From Acidobacteriota bacterium (GTDB taxonomy: Bacteria > Acidobacteriota > UBA6911 > RPQK01 > JADFOI01), in assembly GCA_036338435.1 (NCBI GenBank), contig JAYZCG010000037.1:6179-70178 (forward strand): a stretch of 64,000 nucleotides of DNA. Reading direction: 5' to 3'. Every line of letters begins with the position of its first letter. The stretch's first letter is position 1. The notes under the pieces are model-generated. The model had not been told where the DNA came from and searched no databases. It saw only the letters and a program-made list of their open reading frames with translations. Positions 7,654-12,738 of this stretch are shown one piece after another. The translations under genes were made by a program, and so were the position numbers.

Positions 7654-9018
7654 CTATTTTTTCTTCATTAAATACAGCACCCGCTCACTCTCAGCAATGG
7701 GAGCCGATGCTTCAATCGTGAATGTTTCCCGGAACTCCCGTTCAAATCCTTGCTGGGTGTAGTCGGGGAAAATGTCCTCTCGTGTGGACAGGAGTCGCTT
7801 CACCTGGGAGTCGGTCTTGGGAACAAACTCAATAATGAGATGTTTGCAGATTTGTCCCAGGAAGGCTGAGATGTGGGCGAAAGGAAGGTTGTTTGAGATG
7901 GCCAGATGGTGAATGAGGGCCAAGGCCAAAACCGTATCGGCTGGCCCACGCTCGATCAGCGAAGTTCTCTCTTGGTTGCCCCAGCCGATTCCCGGACTCG
8001 GGTTGGTCAAATCGAGCAACAGGGGAAGGATCTCGGTTTCTCCCCGCTTGACGCTTTCCCGGTAATGGTTCTCGACGGCCCACGAATCGATATCGAAGCA
8101 AACAGTCAGGTGATTTCGTTCGGCGGCCAAGCGAGCAAACAATCCCGTATTAGTCCCCAGATCCCAAGCCATTCCCGGCCTGATTCTATCCAGAAACTTA
8201 CCCACCAGCCGCTTCTTCTCCTCCAGGGCTACCGAGGAGTAGTTGGTTGCATCGTAATAGTCGGCCCATTCGGTCGAATCGCCCTTCCATCTCAGCCGTT
8301 TCACGATGGTCTGCAGGTTGTCCACTATTCCGAGAAGAGCGGTGCGGCTGACATGGCGTTTGGTGGGGACTTGCTTGCTGGAGAAGTATTTTTGGCTCTT
8401 GGCATGAAGGTGAATATGAACCCATAGGGAAGGCCTGAGAAGAGTGGTGATGGGCAGCAGGGATCTCGCCAGGTCCAGCGGGACTCCATCGATGTGAATG
8501 CGAAGCAGTTGGCTCAGGCGGATGTCGCGGTAGACCATCAATAGGAGCGGTGCGAGAAAGTGCTGGCAAAACTGTCGGTAGGCTACCCATGGCTCTCCTT
8601 CTAGATATTTTTCAAAAGAAAGCGTGTCGATTAGCAGCGCAGACCCCTCCTTGAACTGAATGTTGTAGGCGCTGCTGTCCTTCAGGGTCATTCCAAAATC
8701 GAGTGCTCGGGCCTGAATTTCGAGGGTCGTTAAGGCTGCCTCCTTCAACTGGCTGAAGCACCACTCATAGGGGTAGGAGATAAAAGGGATCCGCTCGGGT
8801 GCCAGGATCCTATGGAACTCGGAATGATCTTTTTCCAGAGGAATGTCGACTTCCCGGTGAGGAATCAAAAGCTTGCTCTCGACCAGCGCGTCGTATAGCC
8901 CTGAGGACATCAACAGGTCGTAGTGGTCCCCATAAACCGGGTTGACCTGGCGGTAGAGCTGATGATCGCGAGAGAAGAGAAAGCCGCTGGGGTCCCGGAA
9001 AGAGGCCGGAAGTTTCAT
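7654..9018 (-). CDS. two-domain enzyme: N-terminal atypical protein-kinase-like/phosphotransferase-like domain fused to a C-terminal class I SAM-dependent methyltransferase
   Basis: C-terminal MAWDLGTNTGLFARLAA (motif I), VCFDID (motif II) and LALALIHHL are a classical Rossmann methyltransferase. The N-terminal ~290 aa contain LKDSSAYNIQF (D-x4-N catalytic-loop-like) and LLIDTLSFE (DFG/IDxE-like), resembling APH/Kdo-kinase folds. Start placed at MKLPASFRDPSGFLF (9018), which overlaps the upstream small ORF's stop by ATGA. Function is inferred. Confidence 0.6.
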   Translation of the reverse strand: MKLPASFRDPSGFLFSRDHQLYRQVNPVYGDHYDLLMSSGLYDALVESKLLIPHREVDIPLEKDHSEFHRILAPERIPFISYPYEWCFSQLKEAALTTLEIQARALDFGMTLKDSSAYNIQFKEGSALLIDTLSFEKYLEGEPWVAYRQFCQHFLAPLLLMVYRDIRLSQLLRIHIDGVPLDLARSLLPITTLLRPSLWVHIHLHAKSQKYFSSKQVPTKRHVSRTALLGIVDNLQTIVKRLRWKGDSTEWADYYDATNYSSVALEEKKRLVGKFLDRIRPGMAWDLGTNTGLFARLAAERNHLTVCFDIDSWAVENHYRESVKRGETEILPLLLDLTNPSPGIGWGNQERTSLIERGPADTVLALALIHHLAISNNLPFAHISAFLGQICKHLIIEFVPKTDSQVKRLLSTREDIFPDYTQQGFEREFRETFTIEASAPIAESERVLYLMKKK

Positions 9019-9245
9019 GGGTCCTTGTCTTCTGGGCTGGTGGAGAAAAGTGCGGTGAAAAAGAGCTTGATCCTTCTCCAATAGACCTTGATCGCCAGAA
9101 AAAACGCAAAGAAGGCGGCCACCATCGCCTGAACCACCATACTGCCAGTGCCGGGGTCGAGGTAGGCGTGAACGGTGGGGGGATAGAGCACAAAGGTCAC
9201 TCCCAGCAAAAGGACAAGTTTGGTCGAGGTTTTCCAAGCTTTCAT
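9015..9245 (-). CDS. small membrane protein (76 aa), translationally coupled to the downstream kinase-like/methyltransferase gene
   Basis: MKAWKTSTKLVLLLGVTFVLYPPTVHA reads as a signal-peptide/TM-like segment. It is followed by YLDPGTGS, a second hydrophobic helix and a basic WRRIK cluster. AGGAGA lies 11 nt upstream of the ATG. Its stop shares ATGA with the next gene's start. Confidence 0.45.
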   Translation of the reverse strand: MKAWKTSTKLVLLLGVTFVLYPPTVHAYLDPGTGSMVVQAMVAAFFAFFLAIKVYWRRIKLFFTALFSTSPEDKDP

Positions 9246-9729
9246 GGATCGATGCTTCTCCTGTTGCCTGTAATGATTATCCTCTTTTCATGAGAAGTTG
9301 GCAAGCCTCAGACTCCCAGGAAAAAGTGTCATTTGTCCCGGATACTCAGAGCAGAGGAAGGTCAATCTAAACCCGAGACTTTCTCTTTTTGAATGGTCCA
9401 CAAATGTGGGAGCTGGCCATTCACCTGTCCCAAAAGGATGTGCGAGCGACGATTATCTGCACGCTTGGCATCGCGTCTGCATGATCACTATCAGTGGGTG
9501 GCAACGTTCTCTGTTAAGTTCTCCCCATTGCCCTCACATGGATTGTCCACCCACACCCTGTTCATATCCACCGACACTGACTCCACCGCCCATGAAGCGT
9601 TTCTTAACTTCTTTTCTCCCTGACAATACTTCGGTCCAGAGAAGGAAATCCCTGTGCACTCGGCGATGCTGAGTATTCCATAGTTTGCATGCCCCTTGTC
9701 CAACTGATTTTAGTGAGTAGAATGTAGGA

Positions 9730-12700
9730 ATGGGGACGAGACCAAATTTTATCACGCATGCCCTTCACCTCTTCATTCTAGTCGCTTTTGCAATCGCACA
9801 ACCTGTGTTCGACTTACTGTCTAGCAACGCAGAGTTTTTTGTTGCCCGGCAATCTAAACCGATCGACATTATTCTTCTGATCTTGATCGTCTGTCTTCTT
9901 CTCCCTTTACTACTAATTCCTTTAGAGGCAATCGCCGCTCTGGTTGGTCGTCAGTTCCAGAAATGGGTGCACGGTATTTTGGTAGCCCTCCTCCTGGCGG
10001 CAATCTGCCTTCAAATTCTGAAGCTGATTCCGGGTGTGCCCGGTGCTGCACTGGTCATTGGAGCATTGTGTGCAGGCTCAGCAATCTCGGTCGTCTACTC
10101 GAATTTCCATCTTGCTCAGACGTACGTCAGCGTGCTATCGCCCGCTATTTTGATTTTCGCTTCGCTGTTTTTATTGGATTCACAGATTTACAAGATCGTG
10201 TTTGAAGTCCAAGACACGGAGGTCACCTATCCGGACATTGACGCCACTGCTCCTGTGGTCATGATAGTTTTCGACGAATTTCCTCTGATTTCATTGTTAG
10301 ATGAGAACCGTCAGATCGATGGAGTCCGATACCCGAATTTTGCGGCTCTGGCGAGAGAATCGCACTGGTTTAGAAATGCAACTACGGTCAGCGAGGGAAC
10401 CCTAATCTCAATTCCTGCCATGTTAAATGGTCTTTACCCCAATTTTGAAAATCCTCGGTTGCCGATCTTGAGTGACCATCCCCATAACCTCTTCACGTTG
10501 ATGGGTGGTTCCTACGACCTTCACACCCTTGAAAATAGTACGCAATTGTCCCCAGAGAAATCATTCCTCAATCGACAGACGCTGGCCGAACGGATGAGCG
10601 CCCTACTGTCAGACTTGACCATTGTATATCTACATCTTCTCTTGCCAGCGGACTTGGTCAGCGACCTGTCCCGAATCACGGAGTCCTGGAAGGACTTCAG
10701 ATCCCCCAATACGGAGGAGAGGAAGAGGTGGGAGGACTTCGAAACTGACTGGTCAAGACGTCAACTGAAATTCTTGGAGTTTGTCGATTCCATTCATGAT
10801 ACCGGACAGCCCACTTTGCATTTTTTCCACTCCATGCTGCCTCATGCGAGCTGGAAATACCTCCCCAGTGGAAAGCTCTATACGTTATATGAGAGACCAG
10901 GAGTCAAAGGAGTGATCGGACCGAATAATGTAGGCGAAGACGTCAATCGATGGCGGAACGACGACTGGCTTGTTACTCAAGGTCATCAGCGACATCTTCT
11001 TCAGGTTGGTTTCGTGGACAAGCTGCTAGGAGTGTTCGTCTCTAAACTAAAGAAAGCTGGTGTTTATGATTCGTCCCTGATTGTGATCACCGCCGACCAT
11101 GGAGCTAGCTTTCGGGCCAACGATTCACGGAGATCCGTGACCAAGACGAACTACGCCGATATTATGTCGATCCCCCTATTCATTAAGGCGCCTTACCAAA
11201 AGGAAGGGGTAACGAATGATCGCAATGTGGAAACAATCGACATCCTTCCCACAGTCGCTGACGTTCTTGACATTCCTTTTCCGTGGAAGGTCGATGGGCA
11301 TTCAATGCTGGATAACTCTCAGCCGGAAAGAAGGGAGAAGCTTATTTTTTCCGATCGGGGCGAGAAGTTCGCATTCGATGCAAGACTCGAAGTCAAGTAT
11401 GAGAGCCTGAAGAGAAAACTGGTACGTTTTAACTCAGGACCTTGGGATCGACTATTCACAATCGGTCCCTATCCAGACCTGGTTGGAAAGAGGGTTGCAG
11501 AAATAGATGTGTCAGGAACGGCTGGCATGACAGTGGAAGTTAATGGGAAAAGTTTTTTTAATCACGTTGATGTCGACTCCTCGTTTGTCCCTGCTCAGAT
11601 CACAGGCCGAATAGTTTCGAACTCCGATTCCAAGCACTCACTTGACCTAGCGATCTCTGTCAATAACACGATTCGGGCAATTACACGCAGTTCGTCTCAA
11701 TTCGCCGCTGACGAGGAGTTCTCCGCAGTTGTTCCGGAGTCAGCTTTTCGAAGTGGAGAAAACGATGTGGAGGTCTTTGTGGTGATCGACGTGAATGGAA
11801 AACCTTGGCTGGCCAGCACGAAGGAGGCTCCGGAGGTGGAATTCTCAATTTCGTTGTCAGATCAGCTTGGTGAGATGCTGATTTCTTCAAACGGGAAACG
11901 CATACCCGTTAAAGTGAAGGACCTTTCAGGATGGGTTGGGGCCAGGATCGATGATGAGACAGACCGAGTGGAAATACGGGGTTGGGCCGTAGATCAAAAG
12001 CAGTTGAGTGTCCCAAGTGTCATTCTGGTTTTCAGGGATGAAGAGCTTCTCTATTCAGGAAAGACCAGTGTGGCAAGACCTGAAATTGCGACTGAATTCG
12101 GTTCCGAAGCGCTTTTGAATTCGGGATTTCTGTACGAGTTCCCCGTAGAAGAGTTCGACGAGCTTGCCCATACGGAACTCCGAGTTTTCGCGGTGTCCGA
12201 TCGAGATTCCGCTTCAGAATTAGGTCATCCTGAAAAAAACACCTCATTCTGGCCTTTTGGACCCAACCCGGAAGCTTCTGGGAAAGTGTCTCAATATGAT
12301 TGGGATTCAACGATTCGATTTGGCGCTGGTGGAAATGCGCGGCAATATCAGGGTCGTGGTTGGTCTGTTGCGGGGGAGGGGCATACGTGGACTGTTGGAC
12401 CAGAAGCTTCGCTCGTCCTGGCAGCCTCCGAACCTGAGTCTTCCGTGCTCTTGAAGGCCTTGGTGAAAGCCTTCCTAGTGTCGGAACGGCTCAATGAGCA
12501 GAGAGTGCGTGTTTCAGTTAATGGCCAGATGGTGGGGGAGTGGACGATTGCTGGTTCCGAGTTCGAGGAGCGAACAGTCCTTGTGCCTGCGGGACTGCTG
12601 ACCGAACCGGAAAAGACAGTTATTGTGTTCGAGACACCTGACTCGTCCATTCCCGCCCAACTCGGACTTGGTTCTGACAAGCGGAAACTGGGAATTGCCT

Positions 12701-12738
12701 TCCACCAAATCAGTTTAGTTCAACATCAGGACCGCTGA
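9730..12738 (+). CDS. membrane-anchored sulfatase-like (alkaline-phosphatase superfamily) hydrolase/transferase with ~450-aa C-terminal domain of unknown function
   Basis: 1002 aa. About 5 N-terminal TM helices, then a sulfatase-like core (VMIVFDEFP...ITADHGASF). This is the LtaS/OpgB/EptA-type architecture. The C-terminal half (aa ~550-1002) has no family I can name. Divergent from the 9015-9245 operon across a 484-bp intergenic region. Confidence 0.72.
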   Translation: MGTRPNFITHALHLFILVAFAIAQPVFDLLSSNAEFFVARQSKPIDIILLILIVCLLLPLLLIPLEAIAALVGRQFQKWVHGILVALLLAAICLQILKLIPGVPGAALVIGALCAGSAISVVYSNFHLAQTYVSVLSPAILIFASLFLLDSQIYKIVFEVQDTEVTYPDIDATAPVVMIVFDEFPLISLLDENRQIDGVRYPNFAALARESHWFRNATTVSEGTLISIPAMLNGLYPNFENPRLPILSDHPHNLFTLMGGSYDLHTLENSTQLSPEKSFLNRQTLAERMSALLSDLTIVYLHLLLPADLVSDLSRITESWKDFRSPNTEERKRWEDFETDWSRRQLKFLEFVDSIHDTGQPTLHFFHSMLPHASWKYLPSGKLYTLYERPGVKGVIGPNNVGEDVNRWRNDDWLVTQGHQRHLLQVGFVDKLLGVFVSKLKKAGVYDSSLIVITADHGASFRANDSRRSVTKTNYADIMSIPLFIKAPYQKEGVTNDRNVETIDILPTVADVLDIPFPWKVDGHSMLDNSQPERREKLIFSDRGEKFAFDARLEVKYESLKRKLVRFNSGPWDRLFTIGPYPDLVGKRVAEIDVSGTAGMTVEVNGKSFFNHVDVDSSFVPAQITGRIVSNSDSKHSLDLAISVNNTIRAITRSSSQFAADEEFSAVVPESAFRSGENDVEVFVVIDVNGKPWLASTKEAPEVEFSISLSDQLGEMLISSNGKRIPVKVKDLSGWVGARIDDETDRVEIRGWAVDQKQLSVPSVILVFRDEELLYSGKTSVARPEIATEFGSEALLNSGFLYEFPVEEFDELAHTELRVFAVSDRDSASELGHPEKNTSFWPFGPNPEASGKVSQYDWDSTIRFGAGGNARQYQGRGWSVAGEGHTWTVGPEASLVLAASEPESSVLLKALVKAFLVSERLNEQRVRVSVNGQMVGEWTIAGSEFEERTVLVPAGLLTEPEKTVIVFETPDSSIPAQLGLGSDKRKLGIAFHQISLVQHQDR

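Follow-up and report, generated by a model that had tools for sequence, protein, structure and literature searches.

A kinase-like and methyltransferase fusion protein of the NoeA/Lani_1194 family and its three-gene module in an Acidobacteriota genome

NoeA is a host-specific nodulation protein that affects legume host range and is encoded by the nodL-noeA-noeB operon carried by pSymA in Sinorhizobium meliloti and Sinorhizobium medicae. Host-specific nodulation is the only role known for the noeA and noeB genes, and NoeA is the sole genetically studied member of its family. Ardourel et al. reportedly found in 1995 that noeA and noeB mutants show no detectable change in Nod-factor structure. 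The Lani_1194 kinase-methyltransferase (MTase) family, which includes NoeA and spreads widely, including in archaea, has been described by bioinformatics and presented as comprising possible Legionella effectors (Krysinska et al., Sci Rep 2022, PMC9758233). According to the same survey, its members contain a novel protein-kinase-like (PKL) domain in which K72 is replaced by Arg (R38 of Lani_1194), E91 is missing, and D166, N171, and D184 are kept; 94% of them are fused to an MTase (PMC9758233). The conserved neighboring genes encode a small hypothetical protein (65%) and an alkaline-phosphatase-fold (AP-fold) protein (38%), the latter exemplified by Lani_1195, which is similar to EptA and YejM (HHpred E value of 3e-27 for EptA; PMC9758233).

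The pairing of kinase and MTase domains for glycan decoration has arisen repeatedly, as in the Lcin_0519 family and in ORF6-O7 of Klebsiella pneumoniae O7, the N-terminal module of which phosphorylates and then methylates an acceptor in vitro. These proteins differ from the one described here by their kinase families (AmiN-like in ORF6-O7), by an MTase located first, by coiled coils, and by their occurrence in Wzm/Wzt O-antigen loci. WbdD, the O-antigen chain terminator of Escherichia coli O9a and K. pneumoniae O3, carries a coiled-coil ruler at its C terminus along with a membrane helix and a region that recruits the polymerase, and is encoded in an ABC-transporter O-polysaccharide locus. WbdD and the Lani_1194 type have kinase domains that belong to different families (PMC9758233).

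The window, i.e., the whole stretch of DNA that was analyzed, consists of 64,000 nucleotides of an Acidobacteriota metagenome-assembled genome (MAG). It contains a gene for a protein with two domains, as follows.

7654..9018, minus strand: gene for a kinase-like plus SAM-methyltransferase protein of 454 aa, NoeA/Lani_1194 family (from ORF, translation, homologues, and AF2 model)
8284..9018, minus strand: N-terminal protein-kinase-like domain, aa 1-245
7654..8271, minus strand: helical linker and C-terminal class I SAM MTase domain, aa ~250-454

The open reading frame, for which the initial annotation had given no strand, is real. It runs on the minus strand from an ATG at 9018 to a stop at 7654-7656 and encodes 454 aa; the plus-strand translation of the same positions is full of stops. 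All five motifs quoted in that annotation were recovered in the translation, namely, LKDSSAYNIQF (aa 112-122), LLIDTLSFE (aa 128-136), DLGTNTG (aa 286-292), VCFDID (aa 306-311), and LALIHHL (aa 366-372). The protein has neither a signal peptide nor a transmembrane (TM) segment and is predicted to be cytoplasmic. In the AF2 model (pLDDT, 79; pTM, 0.84), a kinase-like core (aa ~12-245) is followed by a helical linker and by a Rossmann fold (aa ~283-453). The proposed fusion of a kinase-like domain to a class I SAM MTase is thus upheld, with one amendment: the N-terminal domain is kinase-like, but it ends nearer to aa ~245-250 than to the suggested limit of ~290 aa.

BLASTP alignment of S. medicae NoeA with the 454-aa protein covered its full length (157/463 identities, 34% over 454 aa; E value of 3e-78). 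The link was found through tblastn searches against plasmids, in which noeA matched with 100% coverage and 33.9 to 34.8% identity (E values of 8e-59 to 2e-60). Both proteins contain SFRDPSG, the invariant Arg, YPYEW, D-x4-N, ID, DLGxNxG, NPSP..GW, HHL, and EFVPK. NoeA differs in that identity is only 34% and that the rhizobial copy, a neighbor of nodL, lies under a nod box and shows a symbiotic phenotype. The window protein also displays all the diagnostic features of the Lani_1194 family, since it associates a kinase-like fold unseen by the Pfam kinase models, an Arg in place of Lys, no ion-pair Glu, the Asp, Asn, and Asp catalytic set, and a fused MTase. Its homology to NoeA, which belongs to that family, and these common diagnostic features place the 454-aa protein in the NoeA/Lani_1194 family. 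WbdD, which had been put forward as a comparator, is therefore superseded by NoeA and by a kinase-MTase family that was already published.

The family is large. More than 8000 homologues were detected at an E value of ≤1e-3 by a word-indexed search, which provides a lower bound. At 50% identity, there were 6216 clusters, at least 1885 of them at an E value of <1e-30. Among the best 150 of the 6216 cluster representatives, the matches were near-full-length, a few truncated or split entries aside, and the motifs were near-invariant. The number of homologues, the extent of the matches, and the invariance of the motifs indicate that neither the open reading frame nor its motifs are due to chance. 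An identity of 55 to 64% is shared by the copies found in Acidobacteriota, Chloroflexota, Clostridia, Gammaproteobacteria, Methanomicrobia, and Nitrosopumilaceae, and the family is found in monoderm bacteria and archaea. Database annotations of the homologues read only "SAM-dependent methyltransferase," and literature searches by module keywords and by the motif of the small protein described below returned nothing relevant.

In the model, the kinase-like domain comprises, in order, an N-terminal loop that contains Gly (SFRDPSG), two strands, helices (aa 27-47), two further strands, a hinge (YPYEW), a helix (aa 88-107), the catalytic-loop and DFG-like strands, and a helical C-lobe. The residues of interest, for which conservation was counted in 61 representative homologues of 40 to 57% identity, are encoded at the following positions.

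8950..8952, minus strand: codon for R23, an invariant Arg in the second N-lobe strand (61/61 in the alignment; strand position from the model)
8662..8679, minus strand: catalytic-loop-like D114-x4-N119, LKDSSAYN (D114, 60/61 with one Glu; N119, 61/61)
8626..8628, minus strand: codon for D131, the DFG-like metal-binding Asp, LIDTLSF (61/61)

Protein kinases were the only matches in a fold search with the N-terminal domain. Structure prediction thus returned a kinase-like fold rather than a non-kinase domain, and the D-x4-N and ID residues turned out to be kept in the homologues (D114 in 60, N119 and D131 in all 61). Both results support the proposal that these residues are the catalytic-loop Asp and Asn and a DFG-like Asp. 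D114-x4-N119 sits between strands 110-112 and 120-123. D131 is located 12 residues past N119, instead of 13 in PKA and WbdD, so that the D-4-N-11-D spacing lacks one residue relative to PKA (D166/N171/D184) and WbdD (D351/N356/D369). Additional conserved residues, D9, G12, and E85, lie near the predicted nucleotide site. In comparison to canonical eukaryotic-like Ser/Thr/Tyr kinases, which have the VAIK Lys, an alpha-C Glu, and the HRD and APE motifs, the domain has Arg instead of Lys, LKD instead of HRD, and no conserved Glu in alpha-C. Helix 27-47 is devoid of conserved acidic residues, D34 being present in only 30/61 sequences. R23 probably corresponds to the catalytic Lys (K72 of PKA), as judged from strand order and from the survey of Krysinska et al. 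(2022). The combination of an Arg for the catalytic Lys and an absent ion-pair Glu is unusual among active kinases and speaks against an active kinase.

Sequence searches to identify the N-terminal domain in Pfam, NCBIfam, and PDB (phmmer and profile) returned only weak MTase matches or noise and no kinase family, and the Pfam Pkinase model did not match the 454-aa protein. Comparison of the N-terminal profile with single sequences of PKA, CDK2, and NPTII by hhalign was not significant (probability, <1%). The non-significant alignment with PKA placed LKD..N on RDL..N and IDT on TDF, an observation that we do not count as evidence.

The second domain has the features of class I MTases, including a Rossmann-like sheet of seven strands, in which the Gly-rich motif I follows strand 1 and an acidic residue ends strand 2.

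8143..8163, minus strand: MTase motif I, DLGTNTG (D286 and G292, 61/61; G288, 59/61; N290, 60/61)

D309 (59/61), at the end of the strand following motif I, corresponds to the usual ribose-binding acidic residue of class I MTases. WbdD, BCDIN3D, and MePCE rank 2, 4, and 6 among the structural neighbors of the modeled domain, a likeness that may hint at phosphate methylation. The N-MTases NodS, PMT-2, and INMT are also among the top neighbors. The loop that follows strand 4, NPSPxxGW, is conserved (N339, 54/61; P340, 60/61; W346, 54/61) and modeled poorly, with a pLDDT of <50; it is reminiscent of the (D/N)PP(Y/F/W) motif of amino-group MTases. An ethanolamine-kinase and phosphoethanolamine-N-MTase-like route to phosphocholine gained no specific support, as PMT-2 is only at rank 27 of the MTase neighbors.

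The gene belongs to a module that includes two partner genes and a putative promoter.

9015..9245, minus strand: partner gene for a 76-aa small membrane protein, the stop codon of which overlaps the kinase-MTase ATG (ATGA)
9276..9304, minus strand: candidate sigma-70-like promoter for the operon formed by the small ORF and the kinase-MTase gene (TTGCCA-17-GATAAT, 10/12, consensus match only)
9730..12738, plus strand: gene for a 1002-aa membrane protein with a Sulfatase domain (PF00884), NoeB/Lani_1195-type, EptA/LtaS-like long form

The 76-aa protein, which probably corresponds to Lani_1193, has a signal-peptide-like N terminus ending in VHA, the YLDPGTGS motif, and a single TM helix followed by a tail that is basic and amphipathic. 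A homologue was located directly upstream of the kinase-MTase gene in 77 of the 78 loci with upstream DNA. The Y-[LI]-D-P-G-[TS]-G-S motif was found in about 75 of 76 small proteins, a signal-peptide-like AxA preceded the Tyr in 49/76, and a K/R-rich segment followed the TM helix. From these sequence features, the YLDPG(T/S)GS motif is predicted to face outward and the basic tail inward. The same small ORF lies between nodL and noeA in S. medicae, and the Sinorhizobium gene order (small YLDPGTGS membrane ORF, noeA, and Sulfatase-fold noeB) is that of the module. A role of the small ORF as a RiPP precursor or kinase substrate was rejected (the motif being predicted outward and the enzyme cytoplasmic), and one as a stand-alone C-terminal sorting signal of the PEP-CTERM or GlyGly-CTERM style was not supported (no NCBIfam match and no sortase-like neighbor in 84 loci).

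The 1002-aa protein matched PF00884 over aa 201-515 (E value of 4e-21, versus 4e-11 for NoeB); its NCBIfam matches to LtaS, PehA, and arylsulfatases were weak and assign it to no equivalog. Similar to EptA, LtaS, and YejM, it combines an N-terminal multi-TM region with an extracytoplasmic Sulfatase-fold domain, but it is very divergent and has an unannotated C-terminal extension of ~470 aa. Unlike NoeB, it is twice as long and divergently transcribed with respect to the kinase-MTase gene. Orthologues of this long form adjoin kinase-MTase homologues at four loci (L030, L017, L081, and L022). Clustering of the neighbors in 84 loci revealed no recurrent genes other than those for the small protein and the AP-fold protein, an ABC ATPase being present in 8 loci. 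The AP-fold partner was adjacent in 52/84 loci and absent from about 40%, indicating that it is not obligatory.

The explanation that we favor, with a probability of about 0.55 as a whole, is that the protein is a cytoplasmic enzyme of the NoeA/Lani_1194 family with two active sites, which is co-translated with the tiny bitopic protein of the membrane, by translational coupling via the ATGA overlap, and acts with it and with an EptA/LtaS-like enzyme on an envelope precursor. The starting points are the two folds, the conserved residues, the homology with NoeA, and the three-gene module, which is conserved; from these we infer that the protein is catalytically active, in which order its two reactions occur, and what its acceptor and product are. 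On the inner side of the membrane, the kinase-like domain would use ATP-Mg to phosphorylate a hydroxyl group on a glycoconjugate or lipid precursor that is associated with the membrane and destined for the envelope or for secretion. The MTase domain would then methylate the product of the kinase, most plausibly on the new phosphate, by analogy with WbdD. Finally, the NoeB-like enzyme, through its extracytoplasmic catalytic domain, would handle the phospho-form on the outer face. Phospho-methylation would be a plausible activity of the kinase-MTase protein.

A closer parallel to WbdD, in which the protein would be a chain terminator with swapped domains that caps an ABC-transporter-exported polysaccharide with methyl-phosphate, is highly improbable. 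The order of the domains is indeed opposite to the MTase-kinase order of WbdD, as the initial annotation had recognized (kinase-like, aa 1-245; MTase, aa 250-454), and the independent assembly that it proposed fits the literature, in which kinase-MTase proteins form different, only remotely related families. The 454-aa protein stops at the last MTase strand (aa 447-453) and therefore has no coiled-coil ruler or membrane helix, and the polymerase-recruiting region and ABC-transporter locus of WbdD have no counterpart here. No Wzm/Wzt or polymerase gene was found near the kinase-MTase gene in the window, and such genes were not recurrent in the 84 loci. Membership in the WbdD family was thus rejected on the basis of reversed order, no coiled coil, and no O-antigen ABC-transporter context. 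Since monoderm bacteria and archaea carry the family, an O-antigen terminator role, for which the 84 loci offered no fitting context, is ruled out as a general function.

Two other explanations concern the kinase-like domain itself. It may be a dead pseudokinase that binds substrate or nucleotide, or scaffolds the MTase and the membrane partners, the protein being functionally an MTase only. R23 at the position of the canonical Lys, the missing ion-pair Glu, the lack of a kinase match by sequence in Pfam, NCBIfam, and PDB, and the MTase-only annotations are consistent with such a role. However, loss of the catalytic Asp, of the Asn, or of the DFG Asp is usual in pseudokinases, and all three residues are kept here across phyla and archaea, together with G12, D9, and E85. 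Moreover, the 2022 survey reserved the term pseudokinase for families without D166, and the Lani_1194 family is not among them (PMC9758233). We consider a dead kinase-like domain unlikely. The domain may also be active in another chemistry, such as AMPylation, transfer of a nucleotidyl or phospho-group, or phosphorylation of a small head group, for instance ethanolamine or choline, with the MTase acting on an N, O, or C atom of the acceptor. AMPylation (SelO) and glutamylation (SidJ) are known activities of the PKL fold, and an Arg at the position of the Lys could mean an altered nucleotide pose. The likeness of the NPSPxxGW loop to the motif of amino-group MTases, the N-MTases among the structural neighbors, and the use of phospho-alcohol head groups by EptA-like partners point in the same direction. 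The geometry of D-x4-N and the distal Asp is nonetheless that of ordinary phosphotransferases, and the NPSP loop is poorly modeled. Another chemistry is accordingly rather doubtful.

A broader proposal is that the small ORF, the kinase-MTase, and the AP-fold gene form a self-contained, horizontally mobile system for envelope phospho-forms in bacteria and archaea. On a lipid-linked carrier, the cytoplasmic enzyme would build a methyl-phosphodiester or a different phospho-head-group that is methylated. Outside the membrane, this head group would then be transferred by the EptA-like enzyme to an acceptor, possibly the YLDPG(T/S)GS ectodomain of the small protein or a glycan that this protein presents. 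This proposal is distinctly unlikely; if true, it would reveal, 30 years on, what NoeA and NoeB do biochemically, and surface modifications would gain a new class.

Irrespective of the function, the gene adds a member to a very large, unusually conserved, and already described family, and it opens neither a new question nor a new way to answer one. The value of the window is confirmatory, as it shows the diagnostic features and the three-gene module in a free-living soil phylum. The occurrence of the module in such a phylum, outside symbiosis and pathogenesis, favors a general function in the envelope over a Nod-factor or effector role. Unlike noeA, the window copy lies among housekeeping genes of the MAG, its neighbors encoding GrpE, a PPIase, RuvC, and an SLT/LysM protein.

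The kinase-methyltransferase gene and two neighbors studied here map to the window as follows.
7654-9018, minus strand: kinase-methyltransferase ORF of 454 aa (translation), ATG at 9018, stop at 7654-7656
9015-9245, minus strand: small protein of 76 aa with a signal-peptide-like segment, the motif YLDPGTGS, one transmembrane helix, and a basic tail; stop codon overlapping the enzyme start
9730-12738, plus strand (divergent): alkaline-phosphatase-fold (AP-fold) partner, long form of 1002 aa, PF00884 match at E = 4e-21

Translation of the plus strand across 7654-9018 gave stops throughout. The enzyme ATG is preceded by AAGGA and shares bases with the TGA of the upstream 76-aa ORF (…CCATGAAA…). 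All peptide strings quoted in the initial annotation were recovered, namely, LKDSSAYNIQF (residues 112 to 122), LLIDTLSFE (128 to 136), DLGTNTG (286 to 292), VCFDID (306 to 311), and LALIHHL (366 to 372). A word-indexed search returned at least 8,000 candidate homologues, the best 120 being all full length and 62 to 98% identical, and an exhaustive search of 50%-identity representatives returned 6,216 matching clusters (1,885 at E < 1e-30), the best 150 of which were near-full-length matches, bar a few truncated or split entries. Both searches clearly identify the ORF as a genuine, conserved gene.

The sole match in sequence libraries was a weak methyltransferase signal at residues ~274 to 394, seen again in 34 to 35 of 61 family members (best E = 7e-7); the N-terminal half gave no match in these searches. 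The full-length AlphaFold2 model, built with 54 homologues as input, was confident overall (pLDDT 79, pTM 0.84) and contained a Rossmann methyltransferase (residues ~283 to 453) preceded by an alpha+beta domain with the element order of a minimal kinase: strands 14-17 and 20-24, helices 27-47, two strands, the hinge YPYEW, helix 88-107, short strands 110-112, 120-123, 126-129, and 135-137, and a helical lobe. Foldseek comparison of a separate model of residues 1 to 250 (pLDDT 69) with the PDB returned only protein kinases among the best 50 matches, all of them weak (E = 5e-3 to 1.7e-2, probability ≤0.97). Conservation was evaluated in an alignment of 61 cluster representatives displaying 40 to 57% identity to the window enzyme.
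G12, N-terminal SFRDPSG loop: 61/61
R23, second N-lobe strand: 61/61
E85, hinge: 60/61
W86, hinge: 61/61
D114, catalytic-loop Asp: 60 Asp and 1 Glu of 61
N119, catalytic-loop Asn: 61/61
D131, DFG-like Asp: 61/61
D286, G288, N290, G292, and D309, methyltransferase: 61/61, 59/61, 60/61, 61/61, and 59/61

PKA (D166/N171/D184) and WbdD (D351/N356/D369) each have one residue more than the D-x4-N-x11-D spacing of the window enzyme. The initial annotation, which had deduced a kinase-like domain joined to a methyltransferase from raw sequence, had made this reading depend on structure prediction and on conservation of the D-x4-N and ID residues. The former gave the minimal-kinase order and kinase-only best matches and the latter showed these residues to be kept; the kinase-like reading therefore stands, and the structural deduction was right.

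A tblastn search of plasmids revealed 65 full-length matches, the majority on Sinorhizobium pSymA, where they are annotated noeA ("nodulation protein NoeA"). By BLASTP, the enzyme is 34% identical to S. medicae NoeA over its whole length (E = 3e-78), with the D-x4-N, ID, and other motifs all aligned. In the "Pan-kinome of Legionella" (Krysinska et al. 2022, PMC9758233), the Lani_1194 family is characterized by a protein-kinase-like domain of a new kind: "the catalytic lysine K72 is replaced by R," the ion-pair Glu is not identifiable, and the D166/N171/D184 equivalents are kept "within atypical sequence motifs." The authors report a fused class I methyltransferase in 94% of ~2,000 homologues from 1,201 species, including 12 archaea, and list NoeA among them. 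Two genes are conserved alongside: Lani_1193, encoding a hypothetical protein of ~65 aa, in 65% of neighborhoods, and Lani_1195, encoding an EptA/YejM-like NoeB homologue of alkaline-phosphatase fold, in 38%. Our independent results agree with this description feature by feature, all six defining features tested being present. We therefore assign the window enzyme to the NoeA/Lani_1194 family (probability of about 0.9), as an additional member of a family described so far by computational analysis.

Genetic context was analyzed in 84 loci (80 on one-genome-per-species contigs and 4 exact look-ups). A homologue of the small protein, which has no Pfam or NCBIfam family, lies directly upstream of the enzyme gene, mostly overlapping it, in 77 of the 78 loci with upstream DNA. 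Its core, Y-[LI]-D-P-G-[TS]-G-S, was found in ~75 of 76 small proteins and is followed by a hydrophobic segment of ~20 aa and a K/R-rich stretch (median of 5 K/R per 20 aa). An AxA-type signal-peptidase site precedes the core Tyr in 49/76, and many Anaerolineae proteins begin just a few residues ahead of the core. Based on the positive-inside rule, the small protein is predicted to be bitopic, exposing an ectodomain of 8 residues and keeping its basic amphipathic tail in the cytoplasm. The near-invariant SFRDPSG of the enzyme (9001-9018, minus strand) and YLDPGTGS (9141-9164, minus strand) have a D-P-x-G-S-like core in common, which may be meaningful or coincidental.

Next to the enzyme, 52/84 loci encode a multi-transmembrane protein carrying the Pfam Sulfatase domain of the alkaline-phosphatase superfamily, mainly directly downstream and overlapping. 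The Pfam match of the window protein is limited to residues 201 to 515, its C-terminal ~470 residues having no family match, and long-form orthologues adjoin the enzyme gene in four further loci (L030, L017, L081, and L022). Two or three tandem paralogues follow the enzyme gene in some loci (L049, 5669-10391; L041, 7370-10476; L046, 7368-10473; also L026, 3048-6154, and L015, 2499-6226), suggesting diversification of the extracytoplasmic step. Sinorhizobium has the same gene order: nodL, a small ORF (…AHAYLDPGTGS…), noeA, and noeB (PF00884, E = 4e-11). In S. medicae pSymA (L085, 7387-9047), the noeB region consists of two overlapping ORFs, a 121-aa membrane part and a 454-aa Sulfatase-fold part, and is absent from the plasmid gene table; either this strain carries a frameshifted gene or pseudogene, or the annotation is incomplete. 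No further neighbor recurred in the 84 loci, the next most frequent clusters being an epimerase, seen in 10 loci, and an ABC ATPase, seen in 8. In one Dehalococcoidia genome (L001/L002, 4967-7446 and 11659-17389), an AglB/STT3 oligosaccharyltransferase gene borders the module on one side and a nucleotide-sugar block (UDP-sugar dehydrogenase, Gfo/Idh/MocA, acetyltransferase, and aminotransferase) on the other, a setting that hints at a tie to surface glycan synthesis. The anatomy and near-universality of the YLDPG(T/S)GS partner (77/78 versus the 65% reported) and the rank of phosphate methyltransferases among structural neighbors of the methyltransferase seem to add to the published account; both are suggestive rather than decisive.

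The enzyme resembles WbdD solely in the broad sense that a kinase fold is paired with a methyltransferase. Three defining features of WbdD were sought, namely, its domain order, coiled-coil ruler, and O-polysaccharide ABC-transporter context, and none has a match. Together with the six shared NoeA/Lani_1194 features, this identifies a new member of a known family; the novelty relative to WbdD claimed in the initial annotation is superseded by the 2022 description. Architecture, context, and taxonomy all argue against a true WbdD-type terminator, which is essentially excluded.

The enzyme combines two folds, with catalytic-type residues kept in both; genetically, it is tightly linked to a small membrane protein and, in many loci, to an EptA/LtaS-like enzyme. 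Since signal peptide and transmembrane segments are absent, it is presumably cytoplasmic, and the tail of the small protein probably tethers it to the membrane. The kinase-like domain would use ATP-Mg to phosphorylate a hydroxyl on a membrane-associated precursor, with D114 as the base, the metal bound by N119 and D131, and R23 on the phosphates. We lean toward catalytic activity of this domain. A pseudokinase scaffold is the rival reading: no conserved acidic residue occurs in the would-be alpha-C helix among the 61 representatives (D34 in just 30/61), whereas the catalytic-type residues are kept. The methyltransferase would next methylate the phosphorylated product. The simplest reading is O-methylation of the phosphate, given the structural neighbors of the methyltransferase and the precedents of WbdD and the Klebsiella pneumoniae O7 system, in which phosphorylation followed by methylation has been demonstrated in vitro. 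A methyl phosphate product is nonetheless rather improbable in our estimation, different protein-kinase-like chemistry or N-methylation being the competing possibilities. The loop after strand 4 of the methyltransferase (LDLTNPSPGIGW, residues 334 to 346, window 7981-8019, minus strand) is poorly modeled (pLDDT < 50) and well conserved (N339, 54/61; P340, 60/61; G345, 60/61; W346, 54/61); it resembles the (D/N)PP(Y/F/W) motif of amino-group methyltransferases. If phosphate O-methylation does occur, the methyl phosphodiester may serve, at the outer face, as a substrate for an alkaline-phosphatase-superfamily transferase.

The window derives from an Acidobacteriota MAG, and the genes flanking the module in it have housekeeping roles (GrpE, cyclophilin, RuvC, YebC, and an SLT/LysM transglycosylase). 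The GC content of the enzyme gene (0.535 to 0.543 versus a background of 0.445 to 0.49) forms an island at 7800-9200, consistent with horizontal acquisition. Copies from archaea (Methanomicrobia, L014; Nitrosopumilaceae, L080) and more than 15 bacterial phyla (L005 to L084 in general) are 52 to 64% identical to the window enzyme, those of Methanomicrobia and Nitrosopumilaceae falling at 55 to 64%, far above the expectation for vertical descent, implying interdomain horizontal transfer and strong constraint. On the 55-kb plasmid pSINAC01 of Singulisphaera acidiphila (L086, 2744-7987), the enzyme gene is accompanied by one annotated "LTA synthase family," and an IS4 transposase lies ~900 bp upstream of the pair. 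Together, the GC contrast, the archaeal identities, and this IS4-adjacent copy indicate that the module is mobile and self-contained.
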